Shown in pieces: positions 1,713 through 63,491 of a stretch of 64,000 nt of DNA. Source of the DNA: an uncultured Gemmatimonadales bacterium (GTDB taxonomy: Bacteria; Gemmatimonadota; Gemmatimonadetes; Gemmatimonadales; Gemmatimonadaceae); contig CAWBZV010000005.1 in assembly GCA_963793305.1 (NCBI GenBank), positions 384,001-448,000 of the forward strand, in the 5' to 3' direction. Made by a program: the position numbers and the translations under genes. The number at the start of each line of letters is the position of its first letter. The first letter of the stretch is position 1. The notes below the pieces were generated by a model that was not told the origin of the DNA, searched no databases, and saw nothing but the letters and a program-made list of their open reading frames with translations.

Positions 1713-2000
1713 TCACATATCTGCTGTACGCAGCAACAACCCGGCTTCTTCGAATTGGGCGATCGTCCGGGCGACGGCCTCCCGGGCCGTAACGTCATCG
1801 ATCTTGAAGTCGCGCGCCAGCGCCGCCGCGATCGTCGAGGCGTCGTCACCGGCATCGAGCCGGCCCCACACGACCGCCGCGGTGGCGTTCAGCGAGAAGT
1901 ATCGATTGGTGCCGAGATGGATGATCACGGCGCCGCCCGGCACCGCGGCGCATGCCGTGTCGGGCGACGTACGATAGGCGGCGCCGTGGTTATCGTCCAC
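1713..2000 (-). CDS. PqqD family protein / stand-alone RiPP recognition element (RRE)
   Basis: 95 aa; GGAVIIHLGTNRYFSLNATAAVVWGRL...IAAALARDF...EEAGLL is the PqqD/RRE pattern; start overlaps the end of the nucleotidyltransferase. Confidence 0.9.
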   Translation of the reverse strand: MDDNHGAAYRTSPDTACAAVPGGAVIIHLGTNRYFSLNATAAVVWGRLDAGDDASTIAAALARDFKIDDVTAREAVARTIAQFEEAGLLLRTADM

Positions 2001-2973
2001 GCGCCAGCGCTCCCCGAACCGTCGCCACCGTGCGCAGCGGCGCGCAGACCGCCCGCCATGCCAGTCCCGCCAGCACTGCTGGCGATCCCTCAGCGAGTTG
2101 GCTCGCTACATAAACGAGCGGATCGAGATCGCCCGCCACTCGGGGCGTCGCTGGGACGGCCAATCTCGCCAGCGCGACACGGCGCACCGTGCGCCACGCG
2201 CGATCAGCCTCCCGCTCGCCGCGCAAGCCCGCTGCCGCCAACAATGTCTCCGCCGCGCGCCCGATGGGGACGTCCGTGGGCGCGTCTGCGCACACCGCCG
2301 ACACGTCCAGTACGTCGCGTAAACGATATCGCAACGTGCGGTGCACGACGGTCGCGTGCTCGAGCGTGTGGCGCGCCAGCGCCACCGCCGAGGGAATTTC
2401 GAGCCCAGGCACCGGCGTCCGCGTGTCTTGCCAGATGATCGTATCGAGTCCGGATCCGCCGTCTGACAACTGCGTGTGGATCTCGACGGCCAATGATCCG
2501 GCACGAATCAACGCGGGGAGATGCCGCGATGGCGTTCCCGTGTCGTCCGGCTGATAGCCGAGCTCCCGTTGCAGCGCCTGATGCCAGGCCGTTGGATGTT
2601 CGACGAGGAGGTCGATGTCAGCCAGCGTTCTGCGCCCGGCAGGTTCGCCACTCAACAGACGCGCGGCGCCTTTGAGAACGAGCACGCGACCGATACGTGG
2701 CGCGATCTCCGCGATCTCCGCCAGTTGCACTTGAGCAGTGAGCGCGTGAGCGACGGCGGCTTCCGATTGCGCGCGCAACACGTGCCGGGCAGGCTCCATG
2801 GCGCGCGCCAATCCAGGATCCCGCCGACACGCCCATTCGAGCCACGGCCCACACGCCTCGATGCACAGCACGCGCTCCCACGTCGCGACATCGCTCGGCC
2901 CAATGTCCCCCACGCTCCGACCGCGCACGGCCGCCGAAACGATATCGTAGACGGCGGCCGCCGACGATGTCAT
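1990..2973 (-). CDS. nucleotidyltransferase family protein (NTP_transf_5-like)
   Basis: VLKGAA...GRRTLADIDLLV, VEIH and LRDVLD motifs; ATG at 2973 overlaps the kinase stop (ATGA). Confidence 0.85.
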   Translation of the reverse strand: MTSSAAAVYDIVSAAVRGRSVGDIGPSDVATWERVLCIEACGPWLEWACRRDPGLARAMEPARHVLRAQSEAAVAHALTAQVQLAEIAEIAPRIGRVLVLKGAARLLSGEPAGRRTLADIDLLVEHPTAWHQALQRELGYQPDDTGTPSRHLPALIRAGSLAVEIHTQLSDGGSGLDTIIWQDTRTPVPGLEIPSAVALARHTLEHATVVHRTLRYRLRDVLDVSAVCADAPTDVPIGRAAETLLAAAGLRGEREADRAWRTVRRVALARLAVPATPRVAGDLDPLVYVASQLAEGSPAVLAGLAWRAVCAPLRTVATVRGALARGR

Positions 2974-3743
2974 GCCGCCGCCAACAGTGTCTGATCGATG
3001 ACGTGCAGTTGCCGCGGCGAGTGCGTGAGCCGATACGCGGGGACCTGCGTCGCGATCGCACGCAAGGCATCGAGATGCCGACGCGCGTCGTCGTCCGGTA
3101 TCAATACCCACGCGGACTGCGCGATCAACTGGACGAGCGCCTCGACCGCGGTAATGCGCGTGAGGTGATCGGTCGGCCCTTGCGTCAGAAACACCATGCC
3201 GACGAGCGGCCCGCGCCGCGCGACACCCATGGTACGCGGAAGCCGTCGGCGTGCATCATTCAACACGCCTTGCCCCTCGAGCTCCGGAAATTCGCCCTTG
3301 AGATCCGTGCTGACCCACAGATCCTCGCGCCACGCGTGAGCCGTGACGCCATTCGCTACCCGCTCGAGGATCACGCCGTCGTCGCCGAGCACGCGCCAGC
3401 CCACGCGGGCCAGCGCATACGCCAGGGTGGACTTGCCGCTGCCGCTCACGCCGCTCAACACCCAGGCGCGACCGCGAGGGTCGACGACACCGGACGCGTG
3501 CAAGTGATAGCGGCCGCCACGACGTAAGCGAAGGATCGCCCCAGCGCGCGCGAGTTCGCGGCGCGATGCGGCGGGAATCGTCTCATATCCAGGTCCGCGC
3601 GCGAGTCGTCCATCGCGCACCCACAACTCGGCGCCCGCGTCGTGCGTCAGATGCGCGTCAGTACCGCGACTTCTCCCGACGACGGCGTTGAACTGCCACC
3701 GAAAATCGGTCAGTGGCAGGTTGGCGTCGGCGATTTTGTGCAC
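2970..3743 (-). CDS. HprK-related kinase (lasso-peptide-kinase / HPr-rel type); start uncertain (GTG 3743, or CTG 3713 overlapping the precursor stop)
   Basis: LHASGV, Walker A GVSGSGKST and LGDD signature of HPr kinase-like P-loop kinases. Confidence 0.85.
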   Translation of the reverse strand: MHKIADANLPLTDFRWQFNAVVGRSRGTDAHLTHDAGAELWVRDGRLARGPGYETIPAASRRELARAGAILRLRRGGRYHLHASGVVDPRGRAWVLSGVSGSGKSTLAYALARVGWRVLGDDGVILERVANGVTAHAWREDLWVSTDLKGEFPELEGQGVLNDARRRLPRTMGVARRGPLVGMVFLTQGPTDHLTRITAVEALVQLIAQSAWVLIPDDDARRHLDALRAIATQVPAYRLTHSPRQLHVIDQTLLAAA

Positions 3744-3880
3744 GAGATGCCGATCTGCAACAACGCCGCAACAGCCGGTAGGCCCGCGTGTTGTGAGAAC
3801 GCGGCTAGGAACCCGTGCTCTCTCACCACGGGCTCCTCCCACACCAGTGTACCCGGAAGCTGCAGCGTATAAGAAACCAT
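3710..3880 (-). CDS. putative RiPP precursor peptide, 56 aa (not in ORF track)
   Basis: ATG 3880 to TGA 3710: MVSYTLQLPGTLVWEEPVVREHGFLAAFSQHAGLPAVAALLQIGISCTKSPTPTCH; contains WxxPxVxxxGxxxxxS, the spacing of the RRE-binding lasso leader motif; lies directly upstream of kinase-NTase-RRE. Confidence 0.65.
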   Translation of the reverse strand: MVSYTLQLPGTLVWEEPVVREHGFLAAFSQHAGLPAVAALLQIGISCTKSPTPTCH

Positions 3881-4042
3881 CAGTAAGAAGACGCATATCG
3901 CCCCGCTCAGGTAATTGTGTCCTGTAGCACACGGCGAATCGTTTGTTCCGCACGATGTGATAGGGCGCGTCGTTTTTTCGCGTCAAGCGCGCCAAACACC
4001 CGGCCGATACTGGGAAGTGACCCTAATTGGCCGAGGATTTTG

Positions 4043-5941
4043 GTGTCTACCCACGTTCGCTTGTCCTTCATTGCCATTGCGCTCCTGGTCGCGGGCTGTA
4101 GCTCCACGGCCGATCTCGGCGTCACGCCGGGCACTGGCACGCTCTACGGTACGATCTCGAATACGAGCGGCGCACTCGCCGGCGTCACGGTTGTCGTGAC
4201 CCCGGTTGGTTCAGCCGCACTGCCGTCGGTGACGACGACCAACGCCGGGACCTATCGCGTCGCCGGCATCGACGTCTCGACGAGCGGCAGCGGCACGGTC
4301 GCGGTGAGCGGCTTGCCTAACAACTGCACGATTCCCGCGGCGGCCACGTACAACGGCCTGCGCGCGAACGATTCGGTCAACGTCTCAGTGAGCGTCACCT
4401 GTACGACGCCCCCGTCAGTCGGCTCGATCGTCGGCACCATCACGTCGAGTCTGGGTGGCGGGATCGCCGGTGCGAAAGTGACGGTCACTCCCTCCGGTGC
4501 GAGCGCTCTTGCCGCCGTCACCACTGGCTCGAACGGCGCATACTCCGTGAGCTCGGTCCCCGTGGGTCAGGGCACCGTGTCTATCTCGAGCCTGCCGCAA
4601 TTGTGCACGGCACCGAATGCCAAGGCCTATGCCAATCTCGCCTCAGGCAAAGTCGACACGGTGAACGTGACGGTCACGTGCACCCCGGCGACCGGCAGCC
4701 TGGCGGTCGTGATCAGTACCGTGGCCGGTGCGACGCCGAGCGTGACGATCACCGGTCCGGCCAGCTACTCGAAGACGTTGTCCACGACTCAGACGCTCTC
4801 GGGCCTGACGCCGGGCAGCTACACCGTCAGCGCAGCGACGGTTGACGCGTCCAATGCAATCGTCGCCACCGTTGACACGGCGACGGTGTCGGTCGCGAGT
4901 GAGAACGTCACGGCGGGCGCGACAGCAACCGATAGCATCACCTACACCGCCCGAGTCGGCACGGGCGCACTCTGGATCGCCAACGCCCAAGGCTCAGCCG
5001 CGTTCGTCGACTACACCGCCACGCAACTGGCGGCCAGTGGTTCGCCTGCTCCGAACATGTCCTCGGGTACCGCGGCACCGAGCGCCACGTCCAACGCGAT
5101 GGCGTTCGACGCCCACGGCAACCTGTGGATGATCGCCGGCAACTCGAGTCAGATCCTCGAGTATTCGGCCGCCCAGCTCACGAGCAGCACCCCCGCCGCG
5201 ACGATCACGATCAATGATGGGAACGGCGTCGGGATCAACGGCATGGCATTCGATGCGCAGGGCAATCTCTGGTTGGCGAACTACGGCCCGTGCGATATCG
5301 ACGAGCTCTCCGCGTCGCAACTCGCGTCGGCCAGTGGATCGGTCACCAAGACCCCAGTCATGATCCTGAACGGCTGCGGCGCGAACGTGACCGTGACCGG
5401 CCCGAACGGCTTGGCGTTCGATGCGAATGGCAATCTGTGGGTCGCCGATATCGACTCGTCCGATGTCTACGAGTATCCGGCGAGCGTGCTCACCGGTACG
5501 GGCGCCGTCACGAGCGAGCCCGTGTTCCAGACCCGCCCCGGCATCGCGGTCCAGTACCTGGCGTTCGACGGCGGTGGCAACCTCTGGATGAGCGGCTCCA
5601 CCCAAGTCGTGCGCCTCTCGTCCACACAGCTCGCGGCCGGCGGTTCCAACGCACCGGTGACCGCGACGCCAAGCGGCAGTGTGACAGTGACGGGCGCGTC
5701 GCTCGAGGGCGTTGCCTTCGACGACAGTGGCGACCTCTGGGTCGTCGACAATGCCAACGCCGCGGCGCTCGAGATCTCGGCCACACAGTTGGCGAATGGT
5801 GGCACCGTTACGCCGACCACCAGGATCGGTGCGTCGAGCGGCTCGTTGAGCGCGCCCTGGTCACTCGCCTTCAATCCACATCCGACCAGCCTGCCTCAGC
5901 CGGCCCAACCAGGTCCCCAAATCTCACGTCGTCGGAAGTAG
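4043..5941 (+). CDS. lipoprotein with 2 carboxypeptidase-regulatory-like (Ig-like) repeats and a C-terminal NHL/Vgb-like beta-propeller
   Basis: GAGGA RBS then GTG; lipobox LVAGC; repeated AFDxxGNLW blades. Confidence 0.8.
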   Translation: MSTHVRLSFIAIALLVAGCSSTADLGVTPGTGTLYGTISNTSGALAGVTVVVTPVGSAALPSVTTTNAGTYRVAGIDVSTSGSGTVAVSGLPNNCTIPAAATYNGLRANDSVNVSVSVTCTTPPSVGSIVGTITSSLGGGIAGAKVTVTPSGASALAAVTTGSNGAYSVSSVPVGQGTVSISSLPQLCTAPNAKAYANLASGKVDTVNVTVTCTPATGSLAVVISTVAGATPSVTITGPASYSKTLSTTQTLSGLTPGSYTVSAATVDASNAIVATVDTATVSVASENVTAGATATDSITYTARVGTGALWIANAQGSAAFVDYTATQLAASGSPAPNMSSGTAAPSATSNAMAFDAHGNLWMIAGNSSQILEYSAAQLTSSTPAATITINDGNGVGINGMAFDAQGNLWLANYGPCDIDELSASQLASASGSVTKTPVMILNGCGANVTVTGPNGLAFDANGNLWVADIDSSDVYEYPASVLTGTGAVTSEPVFQTRPGIAVQYLAFDGGGNLWMSGSTQVVRLSSTQLAAGGSNAPVTATPSGSVTVTGASLEGVAFDDSGDLWVVDNANAAALEISATQLANGGTVTPTTRIGASSGSLSAPWSLAFNPHPTSLPQPAQPGPQISRRRK

Positions 5942-5974
5942 CGGCGACGAAGCAGTCAGTGCATACTTGCGCCC

Positions 5975-6721
5975 ATGCGAACGCTGCATGGGCGCAAGTT
6001 TTTGGTGCTAGGTCTTCTGGCCGCCGCCCAGGCCGGAGCACAAGACCTCGGCCCCTGGCCGCAACACTCGATGGACCGGCCGAAGCCCGCGATTATCGAC
6101 CCGGGTCCGCCGCCATCAGACGCGATCGTGCTGTTCAACGGCCACGACCTCTCGAACTGGCGCAACGCCGACAGCGCCGACAAGCCAGCGCTGTGGAAGG
6201 TCGAGAACGGCTATATAGAAGTCGCGCCCCACACGGGCAACATCGCCACGAAGCAGTTGTTCGGCGACTGCCAGCTCCACATCGAATGGGCGACGCCCGC
6301 CAAGGTCGAGGGCGAAGGCCAGGAGCGCGGCAATAGCGGCGTGTTCATGGCGGGAAAGTACGAGATCCAGGTCCTGGACTCGTATGACAACCCCACATAC
6401 GCCGACGGCCAAGCGGCGTCGATGTTCGGCCAGTATCCGCCATTAGTCAACGCGAGCCGCAAGCCGGGCGAATGGCAGACATATGATGTCATCTGGCACG
6501 GCCCGAGATTCGACGCGAATGGGAAACTGACCCGTCCTGCACGAATCACCGTGTTTCACAATGGCATTCTCGTGCAGGACAACGTCACGCTCTCCGGTCC
6601 GACGGCGTTCAAGAGACGCCCGCCGTACACGAGCGACCCGGTGAAAATGCCGCTGGCGTTACAGGACCACGAATTCCCGGTACGCTTCCGCAATATCTGG
6701 ATCCGCGAGCTGGCGAACTAA
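5975..6721 (+). CDS. DUF1080 / 3-keto-disaccharide hydrolase family protein
   Basis: Signal peptide; LFNG.DL..W, GNSGVF, YEIQVLD, GEWQTY, LQDH..PV.FRNIWI motifs. Confidence 0.9.
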   Translation: MRTLHGRKFLVLGLLAAAQAGAQDLGPWPQHSMDRPKPAIIDPGPPPSDAIVLFNGHDLSNWRNADSADKPALWKVENGYIEVAPHTGNIATKQLFGDCQLHIEWATPAKVEGEGQERGNSGVFMAGKYEIQVLDSYDNPTYADGQAASMFGQYPPLVNASRKPGEWQTYDVIWHGPRFDANGKLTRPARITVFHNGILVQDNVTLSGPTAFKRRPPYTSDPVKMPLALQDHEFPVRFRNIWIRELAN

Positions 6722-6723
6722 CA

Positions 6724-8382
6724 GTGCGGCCGATTTACAATGTCGCCATCGTCGGCTCCGGCGCGGGCGGCGGCATGGCGGCGTACATGCTCACGAAGGC
6801 CGGCGCCAACGTCGTGTTGCTCGAAGCGGGCGCTCAGTGGAGCGCGATCGCCGACGGCGCGATGCTCACCTGGCCGTACGAGTCTCCCCGCCGTGGCGCG
6901 TCGACACCCACGCATCACTTCGGCGAATTCGACGCCTGTATCGGTGGCTGGTCGGTCGATGGCGAGCCATACACGACTGCCCCCGGCTCGGAGTTCATGT
7001 GGTGGCGCGCGCGGATGCTCGGCGGCCGCACCAACCACTGGGGTCGCATCTCGCTCCGCTGGGGTCCGGACGACTTTCGCCGCAAGTCTATAGACGGCCT
7101 CGGCGACGACTGGCCGATCACGTACGACGACGTCAAGCCGTGGTACGACGAAACCGACCGGCTGATCGGGTTATTCGGCAGCAACGAAGGTCTGCCGAAC
7201 GATCCCGACGGAGTCTTCCTCCCGCCGCCCAAGCCGCGCTGCTTCGAGCTGCTGATTCAGCAGGCTTGCAATAAGACAGGCGTTCGCTGCATTCCGGCCC
7301 GACTCTCGATCCTGACGAAACCGGTCAACGGACGTGCGGCGTGCCACTACTGCGGGCAGTGCAGCCGCGGGTGCAAAACCAACTCGAACTTCTCGAGCCC
7401 TGGCGTGCTGATCGAGCCGGCGCAGCGCACGGGCAAGCTCACGTTGCTGACGAACGCGATGGTGCGCGAAGTCACCGCCGGACAGGACGGACTCGCGACT
7501 GGCGTCAGCTACATCGACAAGACGACGGGAGCCGACGAACACGTCCGGGCTCGCATCGTCGTCCTCGCCGCCAGCGCCTGCGAATCGGCCCGTTTGCTCT
7601 TGAACTCCGGCCTCTCCAACCACAGCGGGCTGGTTGGCCAATACCTGACGGATACGACTGGCACCGACGTCTCGGGTTACATCCCACGCATGGCCGACCA
7701 CATCACGCACAACGAAGACGGCGTCGGCGGCATGCACCTCTACATGCCATGGTGGGTCGACAACAAGACGTTGGACTTTCCTCGGGGCTATCACATCGAG
7801 CCCAGCGGCGGCCTGCATTTGCCGGCGTACGGCTTCATGAGCGACACCATGCGACACGTGTCCCACGCGGGGTACGGCAAGGCGCTCAAGGCCGACTATC
7901 GCCGCCTCTACGGCGCAACCGTGCATTTCTCGGGTCGCGGCGAGATGATCCCCAACGCCGACTCGTACTGTGAGATCGACCCGAACGTGGTCGATCGGTG
8001 GGGCATTCCCGTGCTCCGCTTCCATTGGAAGTGGACCGACTACGAGTACAAGCAGGTGAAGCACATGCAAGAGACCTTCCGGTCGTTGATCAGCGCGATG
8101 GGCGGCGAGCCGCTGACGCCGATGCCCACGGCCGCCGAGGGCTATGGCATCGCGGCCGGCGGGCAGATCATCCACGAGCTCGGCACGACGCGCATGGGTC
8201 GTGACCCATTGACGTTGGTGCTCAATGCGTGGTGCCAATCGCACGAGGTCAAGAACCTCTTCGTCGTCGACGGCGGCCCGTTCGTCTCGCAGGCCGACAA
8301 GAATCCCACGTGGACGATCCTCGCCCTCGCCATGCGCACGAGCGACTATATCGCCACGCAGCGCAAATCGGGGGCGCTATGA
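6724..8382 (+). CDS. GMC family flavoprotein oxidoreductase (glycoside 3-dehydrogenase-like)
   Basis: GSGAGG FAD motif, LGGRTNHW, CHYCGQC..GC Fe-S motif, IIHELGTTRMG, KNPTWTILALA. Confidence 0.9.
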   Translation: MRPIYNVAIVGSGAGGGMAAYMLTKAGANVVLLEAGAQWSAIADGAMLTWPYESPRRGASTPTHHFGEFDACIGGWSVDGEPYTTAPGSEFMWWRARMLGGRTNHWGRISLRWGPDDFRRKSIDGLGDDWPITYDDVKPWYDETDRLIGLFGSNEGLPNDPDGVFLPPPKPRCFELLIQQACNKTGVRCIPARLSILTKPVNGRAACHYCGQCSRGCKTNSNFSSPGVLIEPAQRTGKLTLLTNAMVREVTAGQDGLATGVSYIDKTTGADEHVRARIVVLAASACESARLLLNSGLSNHSGLVGQYLTDTTGTDVSGYIPRMADHITHNEDGVGGMHLYMPWWVDNKTLDFPRGYHIEPSGGLHLPAYGFMSDTMRHVSHAGYGKALKADYRRLYGATVHFSGRGEMIPNADSYCEIDPNVVDRWGIPVLRFHWKWTDYEYKQVKHMQETFRSLISAMGGEPLTPMPTAAEGYGIAAGGQIIHELGTTRMGRDPLTLVLNAWCQSHEVKNLFVVDGGPFVSQADKNPTWTILALAMRTSDYIATQRKSGAL

Positions 8383-16946: not shown

Positions 16947-18680
16947 ATGCGCTTTCTCGCAACCCTGGTCTTCGGTCTCGCGACGACCGCACACGCCCAG
17001 TCCGATGAGTGGACGGTTCCGGCGAAGGACTATGCCGCCACGCGCTACAGCAGCCTCGCCCAGCTCACGTCCGCGAATGTCAAAAGCCTCCATCCGGTCT
17101 GGACGTTCTCCACCGGTGTGCTCGGCGGCCACGAGGGCCAACCGCTGGTCGTCAAGCATACGATGTACGTGGTCACGCCGTACCCGAACGTGCTCTACGC
17201 GTTCGACCTCACGCAGGACGGCTACCCACTGAAGTGGAAGTACCGCCCGGCCGTGGACCAGAATGCCGTCGGTCTCTCGTGCTGCGATGTCGTCAATCGG
17301 GGTGCGTCATACGCCGATGGCAAGATCGTCTACAACCTGCTCGACGGTCATACGGTTGCGATCGACGCCGCGACCGGACGCGAGCTCTGGAAAACGCCAA
17401 TCGCCGATTTGACTCGCGGCGAGACCGTCACGATGGCGCCGTTCGTCGTGAAGAATCGCGTCATCGTCGGCGCGTCCGGCGGAGAATTTGGCATACTCGG
17501 CTCGATCAAGGCGCTCGATCTCGCCTCGGGCCACCTCGTCTGGACCGCGACCAACCTCGGCCCGGACTCGTCGATGCACATCGGGGCCAACTTCAAGTCG
17601 TTGTACGACACCGGGTCCAACCTCGGCGTGACGACGTGGCCGACCGACGCCTGGAAGCACGGTGGTGGTCCGGTGTGGGGCTGGCTCTCCTATGATTCGA
17701 CGCTGGACCTCGTGTACTACGGCTCGGGGAATCCCGGCCCGTACAATCCCGAGCAGCGGGCCGGCGACAACAAGTGGACCGCGAGCGTGATGGCGCGTCG
17801 TCCCTCGGATGGCTCGCTCGTGTGGGCGTATCAGTTCACGCCCCACGACAGCTGGGACTACGATGCGACGGCCGAGATGGTCCTTGTCGATCTCACGATC
17901 GCTGGCAAGCCTCGCAAAGCACTCGTCCACTTCGACAAGAACGGTTTCGCCTACACGCTGGACCGTGCCACGGGCGAGCTGCTGGTGGCCGAGCCGTATG
18001 TCGACGTGAACTGGGCGACGAAGATCGACCTGACGACCGGTCGCCCGGTGCTCAACTCCACGAAAGCCACGGGCGCCTCGCGCGGCAACGTGCGCGACAT
18101 TTGTCCGACGTTGGAAGGCGGCAAGAGTCCCGCATCACCCGTGTCGTACTCGCCGCAGACAAAGCTTTTCTATGCCTCGACGAACAACATGTGCATGGAC
18201 TACGAGGCCGCGCAGTCCACGTATCTTGCCGGCACGCCGTTCCTCGGCGCGAACACCCCATATCACGCCGGCCGCGGCGGTAATCTCGGGTTTTTTATTT
18301 CGTGGGATCCCACGACCGGTCATAAAGTGTGGCAAATCCCGGAACGCTATCCCGTCTGGAGCGGAAGTCTCGCCACGCGGGGCAATGTCGTTTTCTACGG
18401 GACACTCGACGGCTGGTTCAAAGCGGTGGATGCGACGACGGGCCGCGCGCTCTGGAAATTCAAGGTCGGCTCGGGCGTCGTCGGCAGCCCGATCACGTAC
18501 ACCGGTCCCGACGGCAAACAATACGTCGCGATCTATGCTGGCATCGGCGGCGACTGGTTTCTGTTATCGGGCGACTACCGATCCGATGATCCCGCTGATG
18601 TGCGCGACCCCGCGGACTTCGCCCGCGATCTCGCCCGGTACACGAGCCAAGGTGGCATCGTATGGATCTTCGCGCTCTGA
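16947..18680 (+). CDS. PQQ-dependent methanol/ethanol family dehydrogenase (XoxF-like, D-x-D lanthanide-type motif)
   Basis: WTFSTG..GHEG.PLV, vicinal CCDVVNRG, GGEFG, GNPGP, HDSWDYD. Confidence 0.9.
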   Translation: MRFLATLVFGLATTAHAQSDEWTVPAKDYAATRYSSLAQLTSANVKSLHPVWTFSTGVLGGHEGQPLVVKHTMYVVTPYPNVLYAFDLTQDGYPLKWKYRPAVDQNAVGLSCCDVVNRGASYADGKIVYNLLDGHTVAIDAATGRELWKTPIADLTRGETVTMAPFVVKNRVIVGASGGEFGILGSIKALDLASGHLVWTATNLGPDSSMHIGANFKSLYDTGSNLGVTTWPTDAWKHGGGPVWGWLSYDSTLDLVYYGSGNPGPYNPEQRAGDNKWTASVMARRPSDGSLVWAYQFTPHDSWDYDATAEMVLVDLTIAGKPRKALVHFDKNGFAYTLDRATGELLVAEPYVDVNWATKIDLTTGRPVLNSTKATGASRGNVRDICPTLEGGKSPASPVSYSPQTKLFYASTNNMCMDYEAAQSTYLAGTPFLGANTPYHAGRGGNLGFFISWDPTTGHKVWQIPERYPVWSGSLATRGNVVFYGTLDGWFKAVDATTGRALWKFKVGSGVVGSPITYTGPDGKQYVAIYAGIGGDWFLLSGDYRSDDPADVRDPADFARDLARYTSQGGIVWIFAL

Positions 18681-19135
18681 TCCTGGCTCTCGCGGTAATC
18701 GGCTGTAACTCGAAGCCGATCCGCCTCGTGCGCGGCAGAAAGGAGGGCGTGCCGCCATCCATCCGCCCGAGCTCGCGCATATTCGCGGGCGGTATCGCGC
18801 CGCCAGCTGGCGCCCTTGGCAATCCGCAGCCCGAAAACGCGAAGACGGCCGCCGAGGGCGCGAAGCTCTTCACGAGCATGAACTGCGACGGCTGCCACGG
18901 CGGCGGCGGCGTCGGATTCGTCGGTCCGAGCCTCACCGCGCGCCGCTGGCGCTACGGTGGGAGCGATGGTGAGATCTTCACGTCGATCTTCTACGGGCGC
19001 TCACACGGCATGCCCGCGTTCGGCGGTGCGCTGCCGCCCGAGATGATCTGGAAGATCGTGACCTACATCAAATCCCTGCCGCCACCGACCGACCTTCCCA
19101 CCGAGTCATGGCAGGAGGTCGGCGGGGATCGGTGA
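18662..19135 (+). CDS. class I cytochrome c (probable electron acceptor of the PQQ dehydrogenase)
   Basis: CDGCH heme motif, GPSL...W.YGG, GMPAFG; overlaps the dehydrogenase end. Confidence 0.85.
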   Translation: MDLRALILALAVIGCNSKPIRLVRGRKEGVPPSIRPSSRIFAGGIAPPAGALGNPQPENAKTAAEGAKLFTSMNCDGCHGGGGVGFVGPSLTARRWRYGGSDGEIFTSIFYGRSHGMPAFGGALPPEMIWKIVTYIKSLPPPTDLPTESWQEVGGDR

Positions 19136-37390: not shown

Positions 37391-38255
37391 ATGAAATTAC
37401 AAATGCTGCACGTCGTACTGCTCGCCGGCGCCGTCGCGGCCTGCCATTCGTCAGATCCGTCCGCTCGCGCGCCGGTCCTCAGGATTTCGGCCATTCCAGA
37501 CCAGGACCCCGAAAAGCTGCAGCGGCTGTACGGCAAGGTCTCGACGTATCTCTCGACCGCGCTCGGCGTCCCGGTCGAGTATCGCCCGGTGACCGATTAC
37601 ACCGCATCGGTGACCGCATTCAAGGTCGGCGATCTCGATCTCGTCTGGTACGGTGGCCTCACCGGCGTGCAAGCGCGACTACAGGTCCCCGGCGCACACG
37701 CGATCGCCCAGCGCGACATCGACACGGCGTTCCACGCGGTGTTCATCACCCGTCGCGCGTCGGGCATCCGATCGCTCGCCGATCTCAAGGGCCATACGTT
37801 CACATTCGGCAGCGAGACATCAACGTCGGGGCGGCTCATGCCGCAGTACTACCTGCACCAGGGGGGCGTGGAGCTCTCTGACTTCCGTGGCCCCCCGGGA
37901 TTTTCGGGGTCGCACGACAAGACGATCGCCCTCGTCGCGGCCGGCACCTACGACGCCGGAGCGCTGAATGCCCAGGTGTGGCAAGCCCGCGTCGCCAGCA
38001 AGGCGGTCGACACAACGCAAGTCGTCGTCTTCTATGTGACGCCGGCATTCCACGACTATCACTGGGTCTTGCGCCCCGAACGTCGAGCGGCGCTTCGGCG
38101 CGGGATTCGCCGATAAGGTGCGGTCCGCGCTGATCACGCTGGATCAACAGGACATCCTCGACCTCTTCGGCGCGCACCGCTTCGTGAGCGCGGCGGACAG
38201 CGATTACACACAAATCGAGTCCGTTGGTCGCGCCATAGGAACGATCGTACAGTGA
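37391..38255 (+). CDS. PhnD-like (putative selenate/phosphonate) ABC substrate-binding lipoprotein, frameshift in C-run 38074-38077
   Basis: ISAIPDQ, DLVWYGGLTGVQAR, STSGRLMP, SGSHD.T; after removing one C the frame reads NVERRFGAGFADKV...IGTIVQ* ending at the GTGA overlap with the ATPase. Confidence 0.85.
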
Positions 38256-38944
38256 TCGTCGCGTTACGGCACGTGAGTCGCCGGTTCGGCGAGCGGCTCG
38301 CCGTCGACGACGTGTCGCTCAATGTTCGCGCCGGCGAGCGTGTCGCGCTCATCGGTCCGAGCGGCGCCGGCAAGACCACGCTGCTGCGGTTGATCAACGG
38401 GAGCGTCGGGCCGACCGCCGGTCACGTCACCGTTTCGGCGGCGCGCCGCGAGATCGGGACCATCGACCAATCCTTGGCGCTCGTCGACGCGCTCCGGGTC
38501 ATTCACAATGTCAATGCCGGTCACCTGGGTCGCTGGTCGACGCTGCGCGCGCTCGTCTCGTTGATCGTCCCGCGGGAGCGACCACACGCCGCCGCGGTGC
38601 TCGAAGGACTCGGCATCCCCGAGACAATCGACGCACGCACTGGCGATCTATCGGGCGGCCAGCGCCAACGAGTCGCGATCGCGCGCGTTCTGGTACAGGA
38701 CCCGCTGCTCGTCCTCGCCGACGAACCGGTCTCGCAGCTCGACCCCGAGCGCGCGCGGATGATCTTGACGCTCCTCGCGAGTCGCGGCGGTACGCTGATC
38801 GCCAGTCTGCATCGTCCCGATCTGGCCCGCGAATACTTCGACCGAATCATCGGCCTCCGTGCCGGGCGCGTCGTCTTCGATCGGCCGCCAGCCAACGTCA
38901 AAGCGGCGCTGCTCGAGCAGCTCTACACGGTCGCGCCGCCGTGA
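38252..38944 (+). CDS. PhnC-like ABC transporter ATP-binding protein
   Basis: GPSGAGKT, LSGGQRQRVAIAR, ADEP. Confidence 0.9.
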   Translation: MIVALRHVSRRFGERLAVDDVSLNVRAGERVALIGPSGAGKTTLLRLINGSVGPTAGHVTVSAARREIGTIDQSLALVDALRVIHNVNAGHLGRWSTLRALVSLIVPRERPHAAAVLEGLGIPETIDARTGDLSGGQRQRVAIARVLVQDPLLVLADEPVSQLDPERARMILTLLASRGGTLIASLHRPDLAREYFDRIIGLRAGRVVFDRPPANVKAALLEQLYTVAPP

Positions 38945-40428
38945 AGCTCGACCGGCCGCGGCGTGCCCGCGGCGTCGGTCTCGTTGTCGTGCTGCTGCTC
39001 GGGTGGTCTTTTGTTCGGGCGGTCGGCGGGCATAGCGCCATCGCGAACCCCGCGGGCTGGCCAATGGTTCGCGCGTTCGCGACCGCGGCGTTGCACCCGG
39101 ATCTCTCGCCATCGCTCGTCCGACTCGCGTTCGTCTCGAGCGGCATAACGCTCGCATTCGCCACCGTCGGAACGGCCGTCGCCCTCGTCATCGGCACGGT
39201 CGGCGGAGTGCTCTCGTCGAACATCTGGTGGGGCGACCATCGACCCGCCGCGACGATCTGCCGCGGATGCTTCGCCATCCCGCGCGCACTCCACGAAGTC
39301 GTCTGGGGCCTGCTCCTGCTGAGTTGCTTAGGGCTGTCGCCACTCACCGCGATTCTCGCGATCGGCATCCATTACGGCGCGATCACGGCGCGCGTCACCG
39401 GCGAGACGCTCGACGACACGCCCGCGGCCGCGTTCTATGCGCTCCGCCTGGCCGGCGCCCGGCGTCTCACGGCGCTGTGCTATGGATTGCTGCCCGGCGC
39501 GGCCCCGGATCTCATCGCATACGGCTTCTACCGATTCGAGTGCGCGATCCGCGCCAGCGTCGTCCTGGGGATGATCGGCGCCGGCGGCTTGGGATTCCAG
39601 GTGCTCCTCAGCATGCAGTCCTTGCGCTACGGCGAAGTCTGGACGTTCGTCTACGCGCTAATGGTGCTCTGCGGTCTTACCGACGTCTGGAGCGCGGCGG
39701 TACGGCGAAGGCGCTTTCGGTCTCCTCGGGGCTCGCTCGCCCTGGCGGCGCTGCTCCTCGCGTGGTCGCTCTGGTCTCTCCCACTCGACCTGTCGCGACT
39801 GGTCAGCTCCCACACCTATCATCTGCTGGGGGACGTTCTCTCACGCGCCTTCCCTCCGCGTCCCGCGTCGAATCTGCTTTCGCTCTCCGCCGACACCCTG
39901 GCGATGTCGATCCTGGCGATCGCCATGGCCTTCGCGGCTGCGCTCCTCGTCGCTCTCCGACGGGGTATCGTGAGCCGGTTCGTGTTGCTCCTCAGTCGTG
40001 CCGCGTCCGCGCCCGTCTGGACGCTGATCGCGTTGTTCGTACTGTTCCCCGGCACACTGCCCGGCGCCGTGGGCTTGGCGGTGTTCAACTTCGGTGTGCT
40101 CGGCCGTCTCTTGGGGGATGCGATCGAGGACTTGCCTCGTTCTCCGATCGCGGCGCTCGAAGCAATGGGCGCCCGACCCTGGAGCGTCGCCCTCTACGCG
40201 GTGCTCCCCGCGCTCAGGCCGCGGGCCATTACGCTGGCCGCCTATCGGTGGGAGGAGTGCGTGCGCGGCACTGTCCTAGTCGGCCTCGTCGGTGCGGGAG
40301 GTCTGGGCACGCTGCTCACACAGCAACTCGCCGCGTTCGACTATCGCGGTGTCGCCGCCACGCTCGGCGCGTTCATCGTTCTGACGCTCGTCGCCGAGTG
40401 GTTGGTCCGGGCCATCTCGAGGTCGTGA
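38941..40428 (+). CDS. PhnE-like ABC permease (two fused modules)
   Basis: Two halves with YRFECAIR / YRWEECVR and GAGGLG motifs. Confidence 0.88.
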   Translation: MKLDRPRRARGVGLVVVLLLGWSFVRAVGGHSAIANPAGWPMVRAFATAALHPDLSPSLVRLAFVSSGITLAFATVGTAVALVIGTVGGVLSSNIWWGDHRPAATICRGCFAIPRALHEVVWGLLLLSCLGLSPLTAILAIGIHYGAITARVTGETLDDTPAAAFYALRLAGARRLTALCYGLLPGAAPDLIAYGFYRFECAIRASVVLGMIGAGGLGFQVLLSMQSLRYGEVWTFVYALMVLCGLTDVWSAAVRRRRFRSPRGSLALAALLLAWSLWSLPLDLSRLVSSHTYHLLGDVLSRAFPPRPASNLLSLSADTLAMSILAIAMAFAAALLVALRRGIVSRFVLLLSRAASAPVWTLIALFVLFPGTLPGAVGLAVFNFGVLGRLLGDAIEDLPRSPIAALEAMGARPWSVALYAVLPALRPRAITLAAYRWEECVRGTVLVGLVGAGGLGTLLTQQLAAFDYRGVAATLGAFIVLTLVAEWLVRAISRS

Positions 40429-60469: not shown

Positions 60470-63400
60470 ATGAGACGTTAGTGGTTGGTGTACGGAGTCG
60501 CACTAGCGATGCCATGGTGTGCAACTGGAACCGCCATGGCGCAAGTGACCGGCGGTACGGTGTTGGGCCACGTCACCGATCGGTCGAGCGGTTTGTCTGT
60601 CGCAGGCGCTGTGGTGAACGTTGTCGGCACCGCGATCCGAGCGGCGACCAACGCGGACGGTACCTATCGCCTGCGCGGCGTACCCGCTGGCTCGCAGGTG
60701 CTCCGAGCGGTGCGCTTGGGCTTCGCGGCGGCGAACAGCGCTCCCGTCACCGTTGTCGAGGGTGGTACGGCGACGGTCGATCTCGTGTTGGTCCCAGCGT
60801 CGGTGACCTTGACGACGGTTCAAGTCACGGCCACCGGTCAGTCAGAGGAATCGCGTGAGATCGCGACGCTGACGCCGCAGTTTACGCCGGACTCGCTCAA
60901 CCTGGCTGCGGCACCGACCTTCGCCAGCGTGCTCGAAGGATCCGCGCCGGGCGTCCAAGTTTTTCAGCCGAGTGGGACGAGCGGAACGGGAGCCAAGATC
61001 CGCATCCAGGGATCGAGCAGCGTCTCGCTGAGCAATGAGCCGCTGCTCGTGATCGACGGCGTCGAAGCGGTCAACGAACCGAACGCAATTGCCACGAGCT
61101 TCGGCGTCGGCGGCCAGTCGACCTCGCGCATCGACGATATCAATCCGGATGACATCGCCTCCGTGCAAGTGCTCGAGGGGCCTGCCGCGACCGGGTTGTA
61201 CGGCACGGCGGCGGCGAACGGCGTGATCGTCGTCACGACCAAGCGGGGCCAGGCCGGAAAAGCCCACTGGGATGGTTTCGTCGAGAACGGCGAGCTGCAC
61301 GACGACACCAACTATCCGTTGGACTACATTCTCGTTCTCGCCAGGTGGCGGAGGGAAGCCGACGCCATCCGACTGCCCCATATACTTGACCACCACCCCG
61401 GCGGCCATGGGTGGGTGCACCATCGACAGCGTCTCCGGCTTTTCGCCACTCCGTTCGGCGACGACCCCGATCCGCGTCGGACGGCGTCAGGAGTACAATC
61501 TCTCCACCAGTGGTGGTACCGATGTCAACACGTATTACGTGAGCGGCGACTATCAGCTCGAGAACGGTACAGACCAGGCGAATCAAGTCCAGAAAACGAA
61601 TGCCCGCGCGAACTTCACCACTCGTCCGCGGTCGGATCTGTCCTTGAGCGCGAGTACGGGATACCTCGCCAGCAACACCCAATTACCCCAGAATGACAAT
61701 GACGTCCTGGGTGACCTGTCGACGGGTCTGCTGGGCAGCGGCTTGAGCGGCGCGGCCAACAACTACGGCTACTACGGCGGGGTCTATCCGGCGCTCAGCG
61801 ATCAGCTGCGCTCGTTCTCGGACATTCAGCGCTTCACGCCTTCGCTTACGGCGAACTATCAGCCCTTGTCGTGGTTGTCCGCGAACGCCACGGGTGGGTT
61901 CGACCTGGTGAATCAGGATGATCAGCAGACGGTTCAGCCGAACGTCGTACCGTTCGCCTTTCTTCCGCTCGGCTTCAGATCGCGCAACCGCTTGGAGTTC
62001 GAGAACTACACGATCAACTCGAACCTGAGCGCTACCGCGCAACTCCCGGCCGACATTGCCTCGACTACCACAATGGGTGGCAGCTGGCGTCGCAACCTGT
62101 TCACTGGCAATTACGCAGCGGGCTACGGCCTGACGGGCGGGTCGAACTCGTTGACCGCCGTGTCACAGCTGATCACGGTCAGCGAGGTGAACCAAGACAA
62201 CCGGACGATCGGCGGATTCGTTCAGCAGCAATTCAGCTGGCGCAGCAAGCTGTATCTCACCGGTGGCGTCCGCCTGGACAAAAACAGCTCCACCGGATTC
62301 GCGGCGGGAACGACCGCCTATCCGACTGGCAGTCTTGCCTACGTGCTCAGCGACGAGCCGTGGTTTCCGAAAGGCGGCGTCATCTCCGCGCTCAAGTTAC
62401 GTGCCGCGGTTGGACAATCGGGACTGCACCCGGCCTTTCTCAATGCGCTGACGTACAAGAACCCGGTCGCTGCCGTCACACCGCTCGGCAACTCGACGGC
62501 GGCGTTCACCGCCGGCAATCCGGGGAATCCGAACCTCAGGCCCGAGCGCACCACCGAGATCGAAACCGGGTTCGACTTGTCGCTGCTGCACGATCGTCTG
62601 ACGATCAACGCCACGTACTTCGACAAGCACACCCAAGACGCGCTCATTCAACAGGAGCTCGTGCCGTCACTTGGCGACACCAACTTCCGTTGGATCAACG
62701 TTGGCAAAGTGAGAAATCGCGGCGTCGAGCTCGATGCGTCTGCGACGCCGATCGATATACGCGCCGTGACCTTCACGGTCCACGGCAACTTCTCGACGCT
62801 CGAGAATCGGCTCCAAGAGCTGGGAGCGGTCAACGGGCAGCAGATTCAACCCATTCTGACCGGCTTCGGTGGCAACACGCAAGAGTTCGCGCAGGGCTTC
62901 CCCCTCGGAGGCTATTGGCAACTCCCCTACACGTACGCCGACAAGAATCACGACGGGATCATCGAGCCGAACGAGGTCACGCTGACGAGCAACACGCCCA
63001 GGTACATGGGCACGCCAACCCCGACCGAGCTTGCCTCGCTCTCGCCACAGCTCACGGTGTTCAAGGTTATTCGACTGAGCTCCCTGTTCGATTTCCAGGG
63101 CGGGCAAAAACTGTTCGATGCCACGGCGCTATACCGGGACGCGGTCATCGGCAACGGCAAGGCGGACTATGTCAAGGGAGATCTCGCGGGCGAGGCCGCT
63201 GTCATTGCCTCGCAACAGGATGGCACCTTCGCGGGATACTTCCATGACGCGACATTCTGGAAATGGCGGGAGGCGGCCATCTCGCTGCTCGTTCCAACCC
63301 AATGGGCGCACCGCATCTACGCCCGCGGCGTCACCCTCACATTTGCCGCGCGCAATCTGCGCACGTGGACGAAGTACCCGGGCCTCGACCCGGAAACGTC

Positions 63401-63491
63401 ATTCCTCGGACAGGACAACTTCATCGTCGCCGATTTTCTGACGCAGCCACCCGTCCGCTACTATACGTTCCGCGCCACTCTCAACTACTAA
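60470..63491 (+). CDS. SusC/RagA family TonB-linked outer membrane protein (in-frame TAG at codon 4; frameshift near 61330)
   Basis: Carboxypeptidase-like N-domain, plug (IRIQG.SS...NEPL.VIDG; DINPDDI....LYG..AANGVI.VTTK), NPNLRPERT.E.E.G, YPGLDPE. Confidence 0.9.

Follow-up and report, generated by a model that had tools for sequence, protein, structure and literature searches.

Do four overlapping genes of an uncultured Gemmatimonadales bacterium (family Gemmatimonadaceae) form a complete pathway that modifies a peptide of its own, and what kind of peptide would such a pathway make? The question is raised by a 64,000-nucleotide stretch of contig CAWBZV010000005.1 (GenBank assembly GCA_963793305.1, forward-strand positions 384,001 to 448,000), hereafter called the window, in which open reading frame (ORF) analysis places four minus-strand genes at positions 1713-3880, each overlapping into the next. 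They encode a 56-residue candidate precursor peptide (3880..3710, with ATG at 3880 and the stop codon TGA at 3712-3710), a 257-residue P-loop kinase of predicted HprK/PEPCK fold (2970..3743, start GTG 3743), a 327-residue nucleotidyltransferase (NTase) of family PF14907 (NTP_transf_5; 1990..2973, start ATG 2973), and a 95-residue discrete PqqD-type recognition element (RRE) of the sort found in pathways for peptides that are synthesized ribosomally and post-translationally modified (RiPPs; 1713..2000, start GTG 2000). An initial annotation had read the three junctions as contacts or overlaps, and they are: GTG 3743 overlaps the 3' end of the precursor gene by 34 nt, the kinase stop and NTase start share the ATGA at 2973-2970, and the NTase stop overlaps the PqqD start by 11 nt. 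Here we argue, with a probability of roughly 0.6, that the cassette is a self-contained, RRE-dependent peptide modification system whose product is linear or closed into a Cys47-Cys55 loop, and is not a lasso peptide.

The short ORF behaves as a precursor gene

The pattern of substitutions in the short ORF indicates a real gene under purifying selection. When its codons 1-47 are compared with those of three genomes of the same genus (G001, G004 and G005), 7, 7 and 17 codons differ synonymously and 0, 0 and 4 non-synonymously, whereas the same differences read in the kinase frame give no synonymous changes and 7, 6 and 19 non-synonymous ones. Third positions of the precursor frame account for 22 of the 27 variable sites among the four genomes. 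The GC content at codon positions one to three is 0.60/0.51/0.70 in the precursor's own frame, as compared to a third-position value (GC3) of 0.41 in the kinase-frame extension at 3744-3896. The encoded peptide is 100% identical in G001 and G004, with the kinase at 95% and the NTase at 92% and 89%.

The distribution of conserved residues is that of a modified peptide. A search with the precursor returned seven homologous proteins, and an alignment of eight close homologs contains 35 invariant columns, of which C55 is the only one located beyond C47; the stretch between the two cysteines and the extreme C-terminus are variable. RiPP precursors usually combine a constant leader with a variable core, and because the leader here is constant and the C-terminal loop variable, the short ORF resembles such a precursor. 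Three regions can be distinguished: a leader of about residues 1-30, a conserved hydrophobic segment at residues 31-45, and the variable Cys loop, S46-H56 (the ISCTKSPTPTCH region, 3713..3745 on the minus strand), which holds the candidate Ser/Thr phospho-acceptors. Discrete RREs of the lasso type bind leaders with the motif [Y/W]xxPx[L/V/I/F/A] (PMC13381572), and the leader contains WEEPVV (W14-V19; 3824..3841, minus strand), which fits [Y/W]xxPx[L/V/I], followed by H22 at motif position 9. Among 15 diverse precursors drawn from Gemmatimonadota loci and metagenomes, W14, P17, H22 and G33 never vary, each of C47 and C55 occurs in 90% or more, and all 15 carry a Ser or Thr at position -1 or +1 of the first-Cys column. 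A profile built from these 15 sequences retrieved 43 representative clusters (E <= 0.001) among 1.84 billion proteins, all 54-111 residues long, with a family consensus of approximately (R)RxWxxPxLxxH(E/A)SLTVLTQ...LLQI.C....C; some family members, for example at locus L029, are Cys-free. The precursor has no match to any Pfam or NCBIfam family.

The precursor travels with one kinase subfamily

The precursor is genetically tied to one kinase subfamily. In a single sample of 401 Gemmatimonadota genomes, the kinase profile matches 34 at E <= 1e-20, of which 14, belonging to 7 genera of one family, are strong matches (E <= 1e-80). The precursor profile (E <= 1e-3) has matches in these same 14 genomes and in no others, the remaining 387 including all 20 genomes with only a distant kinase. 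In four of the 14, all from genus g52, the precursor and the kinase-NTase-PqqD triad are on separate contigs or 124-129 kb apart; these genomes did not contribute to the precursor model, and their triads have no adjacent precursor. The initial annotation had proposed looking for a short ORF at homologous loci, and 28 of the 37 loci examined, a set that includes two duplicate pairs of the same genome, yield a precursor match. The nine loci without a match comprise three that are cut upstream by contig ends, one that lacks the kinase and five triads of the g52 type. Taken with the substitution pattern and the docking motif, this co-occurrence bears out the initial annotation in taking the ORF for a precursor: it is a real and conserved precursor-like gene whose leader has an RRE docking motif of the lasso type. 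Among the host genome (G000) and 60 relatives, the NTase has homologs in 6 of the 61: the host, four of the five other genomes of its genus, and one genome of another genus.

The three proteins encoded beside the precursor

The kinase is assigned by its predicted fold and its nucleotide-binding motif. Its sequence scores below threshold on Pfam Hpr_kinase_C (16.8 of 33.3 bits) and on the NCBIfam models TIGR04352 HprK_rel_A (37.7 of 200 bits), HprK_rel_B (27.6 of 200) and ScmC (19.9 of 125). An AlphaFold model computed from a 14-sequence alignment has a mean predicted local distance difference test (pLDDT) score of 90.6, and Foldseek matches it to PEPCK (E 4e-7) and HprK/P (E 1.7e-6) with target-normalised template-modelling scores of 0.59-0.62. 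A Walker A motif, GVSGSGKST (3426-3452), conforms to GxSGxGKS, and its residues G98, G101, G103, K104, S105 and T106 are invariant; together, the modeled fold and the motif point to a P-loop kinase of the HprK/PEPCK type. Among the matches listed, family PF27840 is precomputed on 118 of 120 kinase homologs, and the 257-residue length falls within the 222-330 residues of these 120. The gene is single-copy in the genome, and its GTG 3743 start corresponds to an ATG at the same alignment column in G005. Two longer versions of the kinase, starting at ATG 3896 or TTG 3995, were rejected on the low GC3 of the extension, on the replacement of ATG 3896 by AGG in G001 and on the length of the homologs (~253-260 residues).

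The NTase passes the PF14907 gathering threshold (49.5 bits, cut-off 31.2) and carries the G..DxD signature of the pol-beta type (K101-G102...D119-I120-D121 at 2611-2670), together with E164 (2482-2484); all 10 aligned homologs share K101, G102, D119, I120, D121 and E164. Its model (pLDDT 86.6) gives weak fold matches, none at E <= 0.001 but all of them nucleotidyltransferases, and the sequence has no match among those of the PDB. One of the fold matches is ANT(2'')-Ia, which has been cited as the template for PsmN (PMC6993621).

The third protein belongs to PF05402 (58.6 bits, cut-off 23.4), yet scores only 17.1 of 46 bits on the model for true PqqD. It reaches 54.5 bits on the NCBIfam model lasso_PqqD_Strm (cut-off 70), and among solved chains its nearest matches are TfuB1 (2.9e-6) and TbiB1 (3.8e-5), both lasso B1 proteins. 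A gene for a PQQ-dependent dehydrogenase with cytochrome c is located at 16947-19135 (plus strand) and is unrelated to the cassette's PqqD. We predicted the complex of PqqD with the precursor and obtained a score of 0.44, against 0.01 for the best of three controls; in the calibration, passing scores of 0.60 or below came from 18 of 157 solved complexes and from both of the mismatched pairs that passed (2 of 215). At least 68% of contacts are common to the runs, and the partner has a pLDDT of 50 or more. The prediction lends weak support to the pairing and may reflect recall, similar RRE-leader complexes having been solved.

A proposed route to a linear modified peptide

Characterized relatives suggest how the cassette might work. 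The HprK-type kinases LppK, PsmK and PadeK phosphorylate serines of their precursors, often repeatedly (PMC13381572, PMC6993621), and PsmN, the closest NTase to have been tested, is required for the phosphorylated peptide to receive one or two hexoses, an activity that depends on an Asp pair equivalent to the DxD of the NTase (PMC6993621). By analogy, the 56-residue peptide would be the substrate: PqqD would bind the leader through W14-x-x-P17-x-V19..H22 (residues 14-22) and present the peptide to the P-loop kinase, which would phosphorylate a Ser or Thr within the C-terminal portion, with a residue next to Cys47 the likeliest target. The PF14907 enzyme would then use or extend the phosphate, in the manner of PsmN-dependent hexose addition. 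The transfer of an NMP or a sugar onto the phosphate, as the initial annotation had it, is likewise only a proposal. We infer that the leader is removed and that the product is exported and serves a biological role. The predicted core, residues 31-56, contains no Asp or Glu, so that no macrolactam could form and the product could not be a lasso peptide; it would remain linear or form a Cys47-Cys55 loop, and is probably a phosphate-decorated linear peptide. The initial annotation had likewise proposed a non-lasso product, and the absence of a cyclase and of a B2 peptidase from the cassette, like that of acidic residues from the core, agrees with it.

Several points weigh against this reading. 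All of its chemistry rests on analogy, and in the published system for linear polyphosphorylated peptides (LPP) the corresponding enzyme, LppN, was inactive on heterologous expression (PMC13381572), so that the role of the NTase is putative even there. The kinase falls below every curated sequence threshold. Not every member of the wider family has a Ser or Thr next to its first Cys; in a 'QINCGVSG' group, for example, the Ser is at +3. In ~20 kb on each side of the cassette, Pfam scans found no exporter and no peptidase, for the leader or otherwise, nor any cyclase, B2 or radical SAM enzyme, and the SipW-type signal peptidase I (SpI; TIGR02228) has no match in the whole genome, which is 92% complete. 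The 14-of-14 overlap of kinase and precursor overstates the support, because related genomes do not count as independent cases and ORFs adjacent to the kinase were among the sequences used to build the precursor model. Finally, a close relative is represented by a metatranscriptome-library contig of 279 nt that shows 7 differences and aligns with 3577-3853, and two further contigs overlap portions of the kinase and of the 3' flank; such libraries may carry DNA, and the contigs, which give neither strand nor level, are at most a hint and do not prove that the cassette is transcribed.

Sister loci and alternative fates of the peptide

Related loci surround the same pair with different genes. The arrangement precursor-kinase-NTase-PqqD is found in the window, G001, G004 and G005. 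A second arrangement consists of two large proteins with no Pfam match, the precursor, kinase and PqqD, and a PD40 propeller protein. A third combines the precursor, an unknown protein, a radical SAM/SPASM enzyme, the kinase, PqqD, a B2-like peptidase and an NTase-PD40 fusion, and a variant of it is ordered radical SAM-kinase-precursor-PD40. What stays constant is therefore the pairing of kinase with precursor, the NTase being one accessory among several. When the host genome was searched by tblastn with the B2, radical SAM, two large and PD40 proteins of the sister loci, no specific partner was found, only generic PD40-repeat and distant radical SAM matches.

The sister loci have further features of their own. 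Two conserved ORFs of ~445-480 residues each, with no Pfam match, always precede the precursor-kinase-PqqD-PD40 form (L021, L023, L025, L026, L029, L030, L099 and L102, at about 2500-5550 of these 12.7-kb loci). In the radical SAM form, a hydrophobic linker, '...AGCSDSTRP', joins the PF14907 enzyme to PD40 (TolB-like) repeats (L032:7383-8759, L031:1717-3057 and L100:2374-3711), which hints at a membrane or periplasmic link. In several genera, an 800-900-residue repeat protein with no Pfam match, its repeats resembling 'GDSGVVY...GTW...YLVGDGG', is located directly upstream of the kinase or of the precursor and kinase (L018:3447-5855, L095:2092-4674, L097, oriented 4027-6783, and L027:3340-5754). 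Outside the phylum, 29 kinase loci (L036-L064) include four with PqqD and/or B2-like neighbours (L036, L037, L047 and L053, from Chloroflexia, Acidobacteriota and an unclassified metagenome-assembled genome); these distant homologs probably belong to kinase-bearing lasso clusters.

A broader reading, to which we assign slightly less than even odds, is that all of these loci represent a class spread across the Gemmatimonadaceae. Its members would share a Trp leader, WxxPxLxxH.SLTVLTQ, a hydrophobic spacer, a Cys loop and one kinase subfamily, and would differ in interchangeable maturation modules: NTase with PqqD; PqqD with PD40 and two large proteins; or radical SAM/SPASM with PqqD, a B2-like protein and NTase-PD40. 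In the same tentative picture, precursor and enzymes could be separated by more than 100 kb, several different end chemistries would begin with phosphorylation as a common step, and the division between Trp and Tyr leaders would keep the class insulated from lasso pathways in its own cell.

The PD40 partners of the sister loci also bear on an alternative that we consider unlikely, in which the peptide is an exported, possibly Cys-anchored, envelope peptide whose N-terminal part doubles as a signal cut before Cys47, the kinase and NTase decorating, ahead of export, the short C-terminal remainder, which here has 10 residues. The pairing of the kinase with TolB-like propellers, or with NTase-PD40 fusions that have a hydrophobic linker, would fit such a fate, as would the conserved hydrophobic residues 31-45, which end at an invariant Cys, and an Arg-Arg pair that occurs no more than 4 residues before the Trp in 6 of 15 family members. 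However, the window peptide and its same-genus homologs lack Arg-Arg and have an acidic N-terminal region, and the G-I-S preceding Cys47 does not match the lipobox consensus, which wants a Leu at -3.

The cysteines suggest another fate for the phosphorylated residue, again an unlikely one and slightly less favoured than the last. Phosphorylation could serve as activation, with the phospho-Ser/Thr eliminated and the resulting dehydro residue captured by Cys47 or Cys55 to give a lanthionine-like thioether ring. A kinase step followed by elimination is established in class III/IV lanthipeptides, the two near-invariant cysteines flank a Ser/Thr-rich loop, and the radical SAM/SPASM enzyme located beside the kinase in sister loci suggests a role for cross-linking in the Cys loop. 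Against this, Pfam and NCBIfam detect no lyase or cyclase domain in the cassette, the family has Cys-free members such as that of L029, and in the LPP and pseudomycoidin systems, as they are described, the phosphate persists and is extended (PMC13381572, PMC6993621).

Lasso clusters elsewhere in the genome

The genome that harbors the cassette also holds three complete B1-B2-cyclase lasso clusters at a distance from it. Two are on contig C3 of the assembly, at 509.8-513.3 kb (L006 13881-17258) and 763.8-767.3 kb (L007 9813-13244), each with three tandem YxxP-leader candidates just downstream of the cyclase; the third, on contig C5 at 654.7-657.3 kb (L004 9740-12252), has one such candidate in the same position. 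The B1-B2-cyclase genes themselves occupy C3:509.9-512.2 kb, C3:763.8-766.2 kb and C5:654.7-657 kb. All seven candidate lasso precursors carry YxxP, and genome-wide matches to PF00733 and PF13471, the families of the cyclase and the B2 cysteine peptidase, are confined to these clusters, at C3:510-512 kb, C3:764-766 kb and C5:655-657 kb. The initial annotation had called for a genome-wide search for cyclase and B2 genes and had named lasso machinery elsewhere, served by the cassette's enzymes, as a finding that would count against it; such machinery does exist, and the remaining issue is whether the cassette serves it.

If so, the kinase, NTase and PqqD would act in trans as tailoring enzymes for the lasso clusters, as their counterparts do for paeninodin and pseudomycoidin, and the short ORF would be incidental. 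None of the three clusters has a kinase of its own, two of the candidate lasso precursors end in Thr, and a B2 gene is present in 14 of the 15 other genomes that carry the kinase. We nevertheless regard this explanation as very improbable. Each lasso cluster has its own B1, and the seven lasso candidates present YxxP where the cassette presents WxxP; in Bacillota, Tyr/Trp identity is the main basis on which the RREs discriminate between LPP and paeninodin peptides (PMC13381572). The short ORF is under purifying selection, and it is present in all 14 genomes that have the close kinase, whether or not the two are linked. In addition, the one carrier with no B2 match, G311 (3 contigs, 93% complete), retains both the triad and the precursor. 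Since B2 is found in 14 of 15 carriers and not in G311, removal of the leader by a lasso B2 acting in trans is possible, but not required. Despite the lasso clusters, then, the evidence favours a cassette that acts on its own precursor. That the short ORF is a regulatory or structural small protein unrelated to the enzymes, or is untranslated, is least credible of all: no clear Shine-Dalgarno sequence precedes ATG 3880 and no Pfam or NCBIfam family matches it, but its codon-position substitution pattern, its docking motif, its strict co-occurrence with the kinase and the narrow 54-111-residue range of its 43 family representatives all oppose this view.

Surroundings of the cassette

In the flanks lie genes for CopD, a beta-barrel protein of the outer membrane, a divergent beta-propeller lipoprotein and sugar oxidoreductases. 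The initial annotation had stated that the 64 kb contain no lasso cyclase, B2 peptidase, radical SAM enzyme or transporter. The first three absences stand: none of the genome's 25 radical SAM matches falls in the window, and Asn_synthase has no match there, the nearest being 207 kb away. The statement fails for transporters, as the window encodes a phosphonate ABC importer (37391-40428) and a TonB-dependent receptor (61272-63491). The importer, 34 kb off, is the only ABC system in the window, and neither transporter lies close to the cassette or seems related to it.

Upstream of the precursor, two non-coding blocks (3908..3962, minus strand) correspond to invariant columns 39-56 and 79-93 of a four-genome alignment and are a possible promoter or operator of the cassette. 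A sigma-70 consensus scan found no match in these blocks, and promoter and terminator consensus scans and Rfam yielded nothing useful across the cassette. The blocks also lie upstream of a divergent gene on the plus strand (3917-5941), which encodes a lipoprotein-like product with CarboxypepD_reg and NHL/SGL propeller repeats. An ORF at 3907-4140 (minus strand) was dismissed, as its composition is not coding-like and it is antisense to the 5' end of a long plus-strand ORF.

Two other loci in the genome resemble parts of the cassette. A second PF14907 nucleotidyltransferase (90.6 bits) is located at 1316.6-1323 kb of contig C5 (L009), a few kb from two radical SAM genes, and may mark another peptide-modification locus. 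On contig C3, a PqqD match (1448133-1448817; L008) is positioned directly beside a radical SAM gene, an arrangement typical of radical SAM RiPP pairs.

Comparison with known systems

Lasso pathways, the HPr-rel-A system, the paeninodin/pseudomycoidin set and the LPP system each share part of their make-up with the cassette. Lasso leaders recognized by B1 proteins have the motif YxxPxLx3Gx5Tx, and W14-P17-V19-G23-S29 of the precursor fits this spacing; the cassette's PqqD is, moreover, nearest to TfuB1 and TbiB1. Unlike a lasso pathway, however, the cassette has neither a macrolactam synthetase (C) nor a B2 in cis, and its peptide has no Asp or Glu at core position 7-9 for ring closure.

HPr-rel-A (a TIGR04352 kinase with a TIGR04353 PqqD-family peptide chaperone) resembles the cassette in its three protein types and in being cyclase-free, and its models are the best NCBIfam matches for the cassette kinase. 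The relation to HPr-rel systems that the initial annotation drew does not hold at the level of these models, since the cassette proteins, at 37.7 of 200 bits and 25.7 of 35, fall short of the equivalog cut-offs and the kinase match is confined to the P-loop region.

In the paeninodin/pseudomycoidin set, too, a B1-type RRE is accompanied by a kinase of the HprK family and an NTase of the PF14907 type, and the catalytic Asp pair of PsmN is conserved in the cassette NTase (PMC6993621). Paeninodin-like precursors also have a Trp-type leader (PMC13381572). The cassette differs from this set in lacking a cyclase and B2, in a core with no acidic ring residue, and in a peptide that does not end in Ser.

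The closest published system is LPP of Bacillota (Popov et al., Nat Commun 2026, May), which comprises LppA/K/B/S/D/N and combines a precursor, an RRE, an HprK-like kinase and an NTP-transferase with no cyclase (PMC13381572). The initial annotation had called the cassette undescribed; the same cyclase-free enzyme logic has been published. The likeness, drawn from published gene content and the leader motif, extends to a precursor with a conserved N-terminus and variable C-terminus and to a discrete RRE, a kinase of the HprK-like type and an uncharacterised NTP-transferase with no macrolactam synthetase. The LPP leader motif is YxxPxVLxHQxIxFETxxS (PMC13381572), and the precursor family's WxxPxLxxH.SL.VLTQ resembles it in part, being the same or similar at motif positions 1, 4, 6, 9, 12, 14 and 16, keeping His at position 9 and Thr/Ser at position 16. 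Both systems coexist with lasso clusters in one genome, with a Tyr/Trp leader split between the pathways.

The differences are equally clear. The cassette has no SpI-like (archaeal-type, SipW) leader peptidase in its locus or genome and no MsbA-like ABC exporter within ~20 kb, and it is on these two components that it falls outside the LPP class. Its docking motif has Trp in place of Tyr and the lasso precursors of its genome have Tyr, the reverse of the situation in Bacillota. In LppA the phosphorylated Ser (position 19) lies three residues past the cleavage site (PMC13381572), whereas the corresponding residue of the cassette precursor is Ala, and the core here is a short Cys loop rather than a 45-residue peptide. 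LPP is stated to be restricted to Bacillota (PMC13381572), whereas the host of the cassette belongs to the Gemmatimonadota. Our literature search found no paper on this type of cassette in that phylum, although the cluster lists in the supplement of PMC13381572, which lay outside the search, could hold members from beyond the Bacillota; a survey of marine Gemmatimonadota reports lasso clusters in 29 metagenome-assembled genomes and, in the portion of its text at hand, mentions no peptide kinase (PMC11316326).

There is no practical pay-off yet, but the four-gene form is small and easily tested by co-expression. The strict pairing of kinase and precursor, even when unlinked, would provide a rule for finding the substrates of 'orphan' kinase/PqqD/NTase triads, and three accessory modules around one kinase-precursor pair would constitute a natural experiment on the role of PF14907 enzymes. 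If the cassette does modify its own peptide as proposed, kinase-dependent linear RiPPs of the kind known only from Bacillota so far would extend to a Gram-negative, poorly cultured soil phylum, with the Trp and Tyr leaders of the kinase and lasso pathways exchanged.

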